This document shows positions 41,462 to 43,586 of a stretch of DNA of 64,000 nt, piece by piece. How positions within the stretch are numbered: the stretch's first letter is position 1; each line of letters opens with the position of its first letter. The DNA comes from a virus (Duplodnaviria > Heunggongvirae > Uroviricota > Caudoviricetes). The translations under genes and the position numbers were made by a program. Below the pieces are notes generated by a model, which did no database searches, was not told the DNA's origin, and worked only from the letters and a program-made list of their open reading frames with translations. The stretch is taken from IMG/VR virus record IMGVR_UViG_2565956708_000007, one strand, 5' to 3'.

Positions 41462-42129
41462 TCTTCAAGGGATTTCTCCGCATATTCACCAGACAGGCCA
41501 TCAATCGGATGCGCTTCATTAGCCAACTCTTCTTTCGCTGACAAAATCATGCGTGTAACGTCGAAAACTTCACGCAAAGACTTATTGATAAATCCGTGAT
41601 TGAACGCAGCAGCAAGACGGCTGGCGGTATAGTTAATCCCCTCGTTGCGTGCTTCCGCACGAATTTCAGCCAGAAAAGCATCGGTAGCTGGAGTTTCGCT
41701 GTGGTGCAGGGCATCGTTGATAATCATTGCAGCAACTCCGGCCTGCCCTGCATCCGTGACCGACACATGCTCAAGAGTTACGGCCATTGCGTGTTTCAGC
41801 CCGGCGTTCTCTGCCACCAGCGCCGCGAGCTTAGTCTCAAGCGGTGCTATTCGGCACATAGCATCAATATTTGTGTCCTCCAGGCGCTTAATTTCACCAA
41901 GTAGCTCCAGTGCAACCTTTGGGTTGAATGCGGCAACATAACGAGCGTTGTTCTCTGCGTTTTTCAGCCCATCAAAGCCGGTCCATTTGATAACATCTTC
42001 ACATCGTTTATCACCGGGCGTATGCACAGCATACGTACCTGTACCCGTCGAAATAAACGCGACCCATTCGCCCTGTGTTGCCTGTTTTGCTATCTCACGT
42101 AGTGCCTGATAGTTAATTTTGGTTGTCAT
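41425..42129 (-). CDS. Ea22-like protein (paralog 3 of 3)
   Basis: N-terminal INYQALREIAKQA, C-terminal ATDAFLAEIRA...EEWAEQIRKGSSQ. Confidence 0.45.
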   Translation of the reverse strand: MTTKINYQALREIAKQATQGEWVAFISTGTGTYAVHTPGDKRCEDVIKWTGFDGLKNAENNARYVAAFNPKVALELLGEIKRLEDTNIDAMCRIAPLETKLAALVAENAGLKHAMAVTLEHVSVTDAGQAGVAAMIINDALHHSETPATDAFLAEIRAEARNEGINYTASRLAAAFNHGFINKSLREVFDVTRMILSAKEELANEAHPIDGLSGEYAEKSLEEWAEQIRKGSSQ

Positions 42130-43004
42130 GCCACCACCTCTTCGAATTTCAACTCCAATTGATCACCCCAGATTTCACATGACTCTGAACACGAGCCGGT
42201 ATCGAATCGCCTGGTTTGCACCATCGCCTGATACAAATTTCTGTAGTCGCTGTCGGCATACATTCTGGCAATCCCGTCAAGGCTCAGATGACCACGGTAC
42301 ATAACGTCTTTATTTGTCTTTCGGTGACCATCCCGGACGTGTTTACCTGTAACCAGTTCATTAAAAACCCGCATCAGACCAGGTTCGTCTTTACATGCAA
42401 GCCCCAGCTTTTGCGTTGACTTTTTGATGCAAAAAACACAGTTCCCTAGGTGCTCCGGGATTTGCAAATCAAAAGGTTGTTTTCGCCACCACCGGATAAC
42501 ATCCGACTTATCAAGATCTGACAGCTCTGCAAGATACCGGACGCCCAGTTTCGGTTTCAGCCTGCGGTGTTCGTCCGCACGAATACCCAGCCATGTGATG
42601 TAATTCCCTCGCCCAAAATGGTCATCGCAATATTTCGTGAAAGGGGTGAGTTTTAGCCTGTCAGTACAGAACGCGCCGCCGATGTATGGCGTACCGTACT
42701 TTTTAACCATGTCCATAAACGGTTTAAGCACCGGCATTCGCGTCTGAATATCCTTTGGTTCCCATTCCGTATAACCATTTGGCTGCCCAAGTTCTGGATT
42801 TATATCGACCTGCAACACCGTTAGCGGTACGTTCCAGAACTTCACAACCTCACGAATAAAGCGATACGTCAGAGGATGTTCACAGCCGGTATCCATAAAA
42901 ATGAAATGGACGCTAGCGCCAGCTTTTCGCTTTGCTTCCATCAGATGAACGAGATAAGCCGATGTTCGTCCACCTGAAAAGCTGACAACTTGATGCATAC
43001 TCAC
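42126..43004 (-). CDS. PAPS-reductase-like PP-loop ATP pyrophosphatase family protein
   Basis: N-terminal SFSGGRTS PP-loop, C-terminal Cys cluster GSCSESCEIWG. Confidence 0.6.
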   Translation of the reverse strand: MSMHQVVSFSGGRTSAYLVHLMEAKRKAGASVHFIFMDTGCEHPLTYRFIREVVKFWNVPLTVLQVDINPELGQPNGYTEWEPKDIQTRMPVLKPFMDMVKKYGTPYIGGAFCTDRLKLTPFTKYCDDHFGRGNYITWLGIRADEHRRLKPKLGVRYLAELSDLDKSDVIRWWRKQPFDLQIPEHLGNCVFCIKKSTQKLGLACKDEPGLMRVFNELVTGKHVRDGHRKTNKDVMYRGHLSLDGIARMYADSDYRNLYQAMVQTRRFDTGSCSESCEIWGDQLELKFEEVVA

Positions 43005-43007
43005 GGT

Positions 43008-43586
43008 TTATTCCTGAATGCGCTTAAACTCGATTACCCATACCCACGGGTTAGATAGCCAGTTCTCTTGCCCGTAAATACCGCGCCAGATATCACCGAA
43101 ACCAACGCGATAAACAGCTTCCGGCGGTGTAATCTTGTACGTCGCCGGAGATGCGCCTTCCGCTTTAGCATCTGCCTCGCTCATGTCATGCAGCCGTTCC
43201 ACACGCACGTCGGTAATTTCCAGCAAAATACGCGAAGCCCAGCGCGGCATGTGAATTGATGGCGTCCACTTTTCTGATACTGGTTTATTACAAACCTCGA
43301 CCGGAACCCGGTGCGTTTGTTCTGTCCAGGAGTTACGCACGCTTGCGCGATAAACCAGCGTTGCGACGTCCGTCGCTTTGCCATGTACCCGGTAGGTTTC
43401 GCGAACCCAAATACGATCGCCCGGTTGACCATATGGACAATGCTTAGCAAGCAACTCTACGGCCACAGCCCGTCCATAGAATTTTTCTTCAACAATCCTG
43501 CGAGTCTGTGTTTTATTCCCACCAAGAATTGCCCGGACCATCTCATCGTTGAAAATCATGCCGCGCTCTTTCACTTCGTCTTTCAT
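43008..43586 (-). CDS. ASCH/PUA-like domain protein, first gene of the C1-operator-controlled accessory operon
   Basis: MIFNDEMVRAILGGNKTQTRR ... GDRIWVRETY pattern. Confidence 0.45.
   Translation of the reverse strand: MKDEVKERGMIFNDEMVRAILGGNKTQTRRIVEEKFYGRAVAVELLAKHCPYGQPGDRIWVRETYRVHGKATDVATLVYRASVRNSWTEQTHRVPVEVCNKPVSEKWTPSIHMPRWASRILLEITDVRVERLHDMSEADAKAEGASPATYKITPPEAVYRVGFGDIWRGIYGQENWLSNPWVWVIEFKRIQE

Follow-up and report, generated by a model that had tools for sequence, protein, structure and literature searches.

DNA phosphorothioation systems have three sulfurtransferases of the PP-loop type, SspD, BrxP and DndC. In phage lambda, the gene ninC lies within the delayed-early pR transcript. 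Lambda ninC has been reported to be dispensable for growth in the laboratory through CRISPR interference (CRISPRi) (PMC10695390), as would be expected of an accessory counter-defence gene. Moreover, when gene p0018 of Vibrio phage 44E38.1 and the gene upstream of it, p0019, were moved into a sensitive phage, the recipient escaped the host Dnd system (Piel et al., bioRxiv 10.1101/2021.05.05.442762), and a 2026 paper repeats this Dnd-escape reading of phage phosphoadenosine phosphosulfate (PAPS) reductases (PMC13551039). In this current study, we analyzed a 64,000-nucleotide stretch of viral DNA, IMG/VR record IMGVR_UViG_2565956708_000007 (hereafter "the window", meaning the whole stretch), in which a gene for a PP-loop protein, here identified as NinC, follows a gene for an ASCH-fold protein of the phage P1 PmgT family. 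A first-pass annotation, made from the sequence alone, had proposed that the two genes together form a nucleic-acid modification or anti-defence module. Our analyses show that the locus is the early accessory operon Op88/pmgT, which C1 represses in a phage-plasmid of the P1 family, and that it is an ordinary mosaic of known kinds (lambda NinC, P1 PmgT/P7 Upf86.8) and not a new system. We consider it probable, with considerable room for doubt, that this operon carries an ASCH hydrolase and a NinC cassette that act independently of one another, with NinC serving the escape from phosphorothioate-based restriction. Beyond Piel et al. and passing remarks, our literature searches turned up no functional study of exactly these families (NinC, PmgT, phage ASCH proteins and PptA).

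The window region was compared with P1-family phages and phage-plasmids (Punavirus), with which it shares 93-97% DNA identity over a segment comprising pmgS, pap and the operator behind them; the pap/operator segment was present in about 649 PLSDB plasmids. All genes under discussion lie on the minus strand. The operator at 43765-43781 (minus strand) matches the C1 consensus ATTGCTCTAATAAATTT at 16 of 17 positions and occupies the same position as the annotated monovalent OpmgT (formerly Op88) of P1 and Op(hea) of P7, which bears out the C1 control proposed in the first-pass annotation. The window as a whole contained 13 C1-operator-like 17-mers, compared with 0.34 expected by chance. The two open reading frames (ORFs) that the annotation had described on the minus strand were recovered, namely the ASCH gene at 43008-43586 (192 aa) and the PP-loop gene at 42126-43004 (292 aa from GTG 43004, or 290 aa from ATG 42998). 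ATG 42998 is the likelier start, because residue 3 is where lambda NinC and every alignment begin. The distance from the ASCH stop codon to the PP-loop gene is thus 9 nt with the ATG start or 3 nt with the GTG start; the spacing of 4 bp given earlier was incorrect.

As measured by tblastn, the PP-loop protein was 77.9% identical to lambda NinC over residues 3-292, with the same length, PP-loop and cysteines, and 92-93% identical to NinC of Shiga toxin (Stx) phages over the full length. These sequence comparisons identify the protein as the lambda NinC ortholog; it is neither CysH nor DndC. In lambda, ninC comes after ninB, whereas in the window it comes after an ASCH gene in an operon under P1 C1 control. 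It matched Pfam PAPS_reduct (PF01507) at residues 6-71 (36.3 bits against a cutoff of 22.5; E = 7.5e-9) as well as PHROGs labelled PAPS reductase (E = 1e-90), and the family comprised 1556 clusters at 50% identity (E < 1e-3). The N-terminal PP-loop SFSGGRTS noticed in the first-pass annotation was found at residues 8-15, and cysteines are located at positions 41, 113, 126, 189, 192, 204, 272 and 276. Conservation was assessed in an alignment of 72 diverse representatives with about 30-50% identity. In this alignment, E42, K118, G140, R142, D144, R148, G187, N188, C189 and K195 were invariant, and S10, G11, G12 and S15 of the PP-loop, together with C113, C192, C272 and C276, were conserved in at least 90% of sequences. 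Two further motifs were apparent, FC(T/S)DxLK, which contains C113 (FCTDRLK in the window), and GNCxxCxKK, which contains the C189xxC192 pair. Both are reminiscent of the CC...CxxC cysteines that ligate the cluster in adenosine phosphosulfate (APS) reductase (PDB 2goy), and NinC probably carries an iron-sulfur (Fe-S) or reactive-cysteine center.

We next consider how NinC relates to named proteins. When NinC was searched with PADLOC, the only matches were SspD (4.5e-14; 50.8 bits, residues 5-175), BrxP and DndC. NinC resembles these proteins in belonging to the same superfamily, in its PP-loop and in being rich in cysteines, but the scores fall far below orthology and the SspD match covers only the N-terminal 175 residues; for DndC itself, TIGR03183 scored 18 bits against a cutoff of 290. 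The ORF list of the operon contained no dndA/D/E, sspA/B/C or brx partner genes. A much closer relative was found in p0018, whose N-terminal 280 residues are 54% identical to NinC (E = 1e-107, residues 3-282). All five conserved NinC cysteines are kept in p0018, and the two proteins share FCTDR, GNCVFCIKK and DTGSCSESCE; p0018 differs in possessing a C-terminal Dam methyltransferase domain and an upstream DUF6475 partner, p0019, neither of which accompanies NinC in the window. In addition, six independent fusions of NinC-family proteins to Dam or D12 methyltransferases were identified, with Dam on either side (NinC-Dam, Dam-NinC and NinC-D12). These fusions, the matches to SspD, BrxP and DndC, and the identity to p0018 uphold the earlier proposal that the family is tied to DNA modification or anti-defence, and NinC may plausibly have such a role.

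Among solved structures, the NinC-family profile matched PptA of Vibrio phage vB_VhaP_VH-5 best (PDB 21fy chain C; E = 3.4e-7). PptA and NinC are both phage-encoded and have the motifs CTxxLK and NCxxC in common, but PptA is a distant relative with a degenerate P-loop (SCGAPS), and no paper on the function of PptA (PDB 21fy) was found. The pptA gene (L290:4749-5501; locus numbers of this form are our own) is flanked by the genes for the RNA polymerase and the head-tail connector in this autographivirus, and a NinC-family gene of Vibrio phage K70 (L286:1451-2302) lies between the genes for the terminase large subunit and the portal; NinC-family genes thus also occur among structural or late genes.

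The protein encoded upstream of NinC belongs to PHROG 874 (unknown function), of which P1 PmgT, P7 Upf86.8, Mx8 p14 and F116 gp7 are also members. PmgT and Upf86.8 are encoded at the same locus as the window protein, immediately after Op88. The window protein was about 45% identical to the PmgT-type homologue of the Punavirus P1 isolate MH422554 and 83% identical to the homologues of the P1-like phages RCS47 and JL22, both of the Upf86.8 type; it is shorter than P1 PmgT (192 versus 309 aa), and the middle and 3′ segments of its gene are mosaic alleles different from those of PmgT and Upf86.8. Pfam ASCH (PF04266) scored 16.1 bits on the window protein, below the gathering threshold of 21.2; however, ASCH was the top family for 30 of 72 diverse relatives (best E = 4.4e-5). 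An AlphaFold model built from a diverse alignment had a predicted local distance difference test (pLDDT) score of 72.7, with a core of about 90 and an insert at residues 67-113 of low confidence; an earlier run on 128 close homologues had yielded a poor model (pLDDT 48). On the basis of this predicted structure the protein has the ASCH fold, and its earlier description as ASCH-like was accurate. Searches of PDB sequences with the protein and with its family profile gave no match, and neither NCBIfam nor PADLOC matched it.

The catalytic residues of YqfB, the N4-acetylcytidine (ac4C) amidohydrolase of Escherichia coli, are Lys21, Thr24, Arg26 and Glu74 (PMC9599836). K25, T28 and R30 of the phage protein were aligned by hhalign to the first three, and E143 corresponds to Glu74 in a gapless hand alignment of ERLHDMSEADAKAEG with VTLDTLTEKHAEQEN, so that the phage protein has the Lys-Thr-Arg-Glu set of YqfB. 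Among 72 ASCH-family sequences from many phyla, T28, R29, E63, M113, R119, E143 and G144 were invariant, and K25, R30, H112, P114 and R115 were nearly so (K25 and R30 in at least 90%). The phage protein is unlike YqfB in being twice as long and in having a variable, low-confidence insert at 67-113; moreover, E63, the H112-M-P-R motif and R119, which are invariant in the phage family, are absent from YqfB. Whereas the first-pass annotation had cast this protein as a binder of modified nucleic acid, it looks like an enzyme and not a passive reader, because the catalytic residues of YqfB are kept. Judged from these residues, it most likely acts as a hydrolase of modified (acylated) nucleobases, nucleosides or nucleic acids.

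The organization of the ASCH gene and of the slot behind it was also examined, together with the loci of related elements. The samples included the 80 loci closest to NinC, the 80 IMG/VR loci closest to the ASCH protein, and 80 species-level genome loci with ASCH relatives. The ASCH gene is a three-part DNA mosaic: between conserved blocks at 44400-43495 and 43262-42999 the middle has been replaced. P1-like elements have in common its 5′ end, as far as about 43495, and its 3′ end, starting at about 43262, and a further breakpoint relative to the RCS47/P7 type lies near 43152. These conserved ends may serve as recombination arms for exchange of the downstream cassette. NinC itself is an ORF-bounded cassette, as its DNA homology to Stx-phage ninC is confined to the ORF, and in the sister element L042 the position of NinC is occupied exactly by an unrelated 88-aa gene, with the ASCH 3′ end and the ead/Ea22 start on either side unchanged. 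Because of these two observations, we regard the slot after the ASCH gene as a site of cassette exchange. In related prophages the slot contained a NinC-like gene (L061), a C5 DNA methyltransferase (L062), a small methyltransferase (L068), an MT-A70 methyltransferase (L025) or a DpdA-like transglycosylase (L070; phrog_887, 3.6e-93). The DpdA-like protein, 250 aa in length, is encoded right after the ASCH gene in L070 (8726-9481) and L173 (4338-5090); it matched phrog_887 ("queuine tRNA-ribosyltransferase") and no Pfam family, and no obvious preQ0 synthesis genes were present beside it within either locus.

When the next (+1) ORFs of at least 100 aa were counted in the species-level loci, 10 of 56 encoded DNA-modification enzymes (seven methyltransferases, two PAPS-reductase-like proteins and one DpdA-like protein), whereas among 149 control ORFs on the same strand of those loci the count was at least 5 (Fisher p of about 0.001). 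Control hits were counted among the 25 commonest of 58 families and are bracketed at 5-9 of 149; if up to four further single control hits are allowed, p is 0.013. The enrichment is real but moderate, and most ASCH genes are followed by some other gene. One control ORF near an ASCH-like gene (L168-L247 set) matched DndB (Pfam PF14072, 1.6e-48), a hint that phosphorothioation-associated genes occur in the same prophage neighborhoods. This arrangement allows an alternative in which PmgT/Upf86.8-type ASCH proteins are widespread phage nucleobase hydrolases that help whichever DNA modifier occupies the next slot, as an "eraser/helper plus writer" cassette. The modifier could be a methyltransferase, a DpdA transglycosylase or a NinC/PAPS-reductase-like protein, the ASCH enzyme might remove a by-product or a base modification that competes or blocks, and NinC would thiolate the DNA backbone or a base without Dnd or Ssp partners. 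We regard this alternative as unlikely.

The proposal of the first-pass annotation that the two genes form one module was assessed from their distribution. An ASCH gene was found in 12 of the 80 closest NinC loci (the other 68 being lambdoid) and in 3 of 38 loci of the L061-type NinC clade, which is 29% identical to window NinC; it was absent from the remaining 35. Conversely, 73 of the 80 closest ASCH loci and 76 of the 80 species-level loci had no NinC-like gene within 5-8 kb, with NinC present in seven of the former and a PAPS-reductase-like gene within 5 kb in four of the latter. These four comprise L207 (directly downstream of the ASCH gene, overlapping), L189 (directly downstream, at 121 nt), and L187 and L198 (about 2 kb upstream). 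About 64 of the roughly 649 P1-like plasmids (about 10%) carry window-type NinC; P1, P7, RCS47, SJ46 and JL22 have the ASCH gene without NinC, and lambda, Stx and P22-like phages have NinC without the ASCH gene. No ASCH-NinC fusion occurred among the 150 best NinC-family representatives. We also considered whether p0019, whose gene precedes the Vibrio anti-Dnd gene, might be an ASCH protein, and rejected this (hhalign probability 0.1; Pfam DUF6475). Since most NinC and ASCH loci lack the other gene, no fusion was seen, and p0019 is not an ASCH protein, the two families are largely independent and their pairing is facultative.

Accordingly, an obligate two-gene module, in which the ASCH protein would recognize or prepare a nucleic-acid substrate, NinC would adenylate or thiolate it, and neither would work alone, is not supported, and we hold it to be quite unlikely. 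In its favor, P1-like elements (with three different ASCH alleles), the L061/L255/L270 clade and L207 all show the two genes side by side, with close spacing and unchanged order; in L189 a PAPS-reductase-like gene likewise comes after the ASCH gene; and across recombinants NinC is accompanied by the 3′ third of the ASCH gene. When both genes are present, however, they are usually adjacent because the position behind the ASCH gene is one of cassette exchange, and the same slot also holds unrelated enzymes and non-enzymes. The distances of about 2 kb in L187 and L198, and the absence of an ASCH partner from both lambda NinC and the Vibrio anti-Dnd protein, also speak against such a module; the pair is not conserved as neighbors in related phages, an outcome that the first-pass annotation had itself named as refuting its proposal.

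A different substrate was also considered, namely that NinC acts on RNA (through tRNA thiolation or adenylation, like TtcA and TtuA), that the ASCH protein likewise acts on RNA, and that the pair retunes host translation. tRNA thiolases, too, typically have a PP-loop together with a pattern of three cysteines, TtcA and TtuA being PP-loop Fe-S enzymes, and NinC gave a weak TilS match in the NCBIfam search. Relatives of the ASCH protein act on ac4C or RNA (PMC9599836; ZmASCH matches). However, the fusion partners of NinC are exclusively DNA methyltransferases, its nearest named relatives are DNA phosphorothioation enzymes, and the genetic phenotype of its Vibrio relative concerns a DNA restriction system, so that we view action on RNA as improbable.

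We see very little prospect that NinC is an auxiliary sulfur-assimilation gene encoding a CysH-like PAPS/APS reductase, even though the Pfam PAPS_reduct match and the PHROG label "phosphoadenosine phosphosulfate reductase" would suggest so. NinC does resemble CysH and APS reductases (PDB 6vpu, 2goy and 1sur) in an N-terminal Rossmann-like region and a (L/M)DTG motif, but the similarity to solved PAPS/APS reductases spans only about 60 N-terminal residues. Orthology to assimilatory CysH, which the first-pass annotation had named among the findings that would overturn its proposal, was not observed: NCBIfam NF002537 scored 21.8 bits against a cutoff of 154, and where CysH has a degenerate PP-loop (SSSFG) and a C-terminal ECGLH, NinC has an SFSGG (SGGxxS) PP-loop and a C-terminal GxCxxSCE (GSCSESCEIW in the window). 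The methyltransferase fusions of the NinC family are likewise at odds with sulfur assimilation. Finally, a purely morphogenetic role without enzymatic or defence function, as implied by the P1 label of pmgT ("putative morphogenetic function") and by database names such as "morphogenetic protein", is scarcely credible, given that pmgT is non-essential in P1 by CRISPRi (PMC10695390), that the ASCH enzyme fold retains a conserved catalytic set, and that the operon is early and C1-controlled and not driven by a late promoter.

We therefore return to independent action of the two proteins as the preferred explanation. According to this model, once C1 repression is lifted, the Op88 promoter would transcribe the genes for a 28-aa peptide, the ASCH hydrolase, NinC and the ead/Ea22-type proteins. 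NinC would be an enzyme of the PP-loop ATP-pyrophosphatase type within the PAPS-reductase superfamily, with SspD, BrxP and DndC as its nearest kin, and it presumably binds and uses ATP at its PP-loop. With its putative cysteine or Fe-S center it would operate on DNA or on the phosphorothioation machinery, either by adenylating its target and transferring sulfur or by disturbing chemistry of that kind, and by analogy with the Vibrio relative it may shield the element, on entry or during replication, from restriction of the Dnd/Ssp type. The ASCH protein, as its catalytic set suggests, would cleave an acylated or otherwise modified base or nucleoside; the two would be expressed together and work independently.

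Several points weigh against this model. When ASCH and PAPS-reductase-like genes do co-occur, they are nearly always adjacent and in that order, and this adjacency is seen in at least three to four lineages (P1-like elements, the L061 clade, the Magnetococcales locus L207 and the Rahnella locus L189), which leaves room for some cooperation. With respect to NinC, the second acidic residue of the PP-loop motif SGGxDS is replaced (SGGRTS, Asp to Thr), and the proposed correspondence of C113 and the CxxC pair to the APS-reductase cluster ligands comes from motif resemblance. Lambda DNA is not known to carry phosphorothioate. Our literature search returned no biochemical activity for any NinC, and the Vibrio experiment transferred two genes jointly, one of them with a Dam fusion, so that the share of the NinC domain was not isolated. 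For the ASCH protein, residues 67-113 of the model are of low confidence, and the equivalence of E143 with YqfB E74 comes from the manual gapless alignment.

Other features of the operon were located as follows. Two promoters, P1pmgT and P2pmgT, are predicted at about 43737-43780 (minus strand), with hexamers TTGATT/GAAAAT and TTGCTC/TAAGAC placed through homology to the P1 annotation. The leader contains a 10-bp GC-rich hairpin at 43710-43732, which gave a terminator-like match on the plus strand, where it is followed by the T-run TTTTATTTT; it could be a terminator for antisense transcription or, alternatively, a 5′ untranslated region structure. The first ORF past the operator encodes a hydrophobic peptide of 28 aa (MNTAFKIIMAAIYFWLFSITFGGIVAHG; 43596-43682, minus strand), and its stop codon overlaps the Shine-Dalgarno sequence of the ASCH gene. 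The first-pass annotation had the ASCH and PP-loop genes as the first two of the operon; both do follow the operator, but this small ORF precedes them. Its counterpart in phage SJ46 is named "membrane protein", and Pfam and PHROG searches gave no family match. Downstream, the stop codon of ninC is overlapped by an Ead/Ea22-like gene (41425-42129, minus strand; Pfam Ead_Ea22, 7.9e-25), which belongs to the lambdoid-type gene set found, by downstream-neighbor clustering, after NinC in 61 of the NinC loci examined. The operon continues on the minus strand with a DUF4752 gene (41138-41461), a 244-aa gene without a family match (40407-41141) and a second Ead/Ea22-like gene (39778-40410). The genes from 39778 to 41461 have overlapping stops and starts and represent typical lambdoid ea-region content inside a P1 backbone.

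Upstream of the operator, Pap (43781-44287, minus strand) is a HAD/PNKP-type polynucleotide 3′-phosphatase domain protein (Pfam HAD_PNKP, 5.3e-12). Because a strong intrinsic terminator at 44312-44341 (minus strand) separates pap from pmgS, pap seems to need its own promoter. Other C1-operator-like sites in the window include those at 11681, 27374, 27457, 45858, 45907, 59963 and 63485, of which the paired sites at 45858 and 45907 correspond to P1 Op86a/b, upstream of pmgR. In L099 (7411-8010) and 53 other Stx/lambdoid NinC loci (L099-L163 group), an ORF of 199 aa overlaps NinC from upstream and gave a near-threshold match to the HD 5′-deoxynucleotidase YfbR family (24 bits; cutoff 25.9). L061 has a similar ORF two genes upstream of its ASCH gene.

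For the window itself, the result is mostly one of clarification. NinC is among the last lambda genes without an assigned function, and phage "PAPS reductase" genes are common and usually labelled as sulfur metabolism. Given the 54% identity, over the full length of NinC, to a protein genetically implicated in escape from Dnd, the position of SspD, BrxP and DndC as nearest named relatives and the recurrent fusions to adenine-specific DNA methyltransferases, a testable prediction is that NinC of the lambda, Stx and P1 types counters phosphorothioate-based restriction. The PmgT/Upf86.8 proteins likewise emerge as probable enzymes whose active site resembles that of YqfB, and their genes mark a hotspot of DNA-modification cassettes that can be mined for new phage modification and anti-restriction genes.

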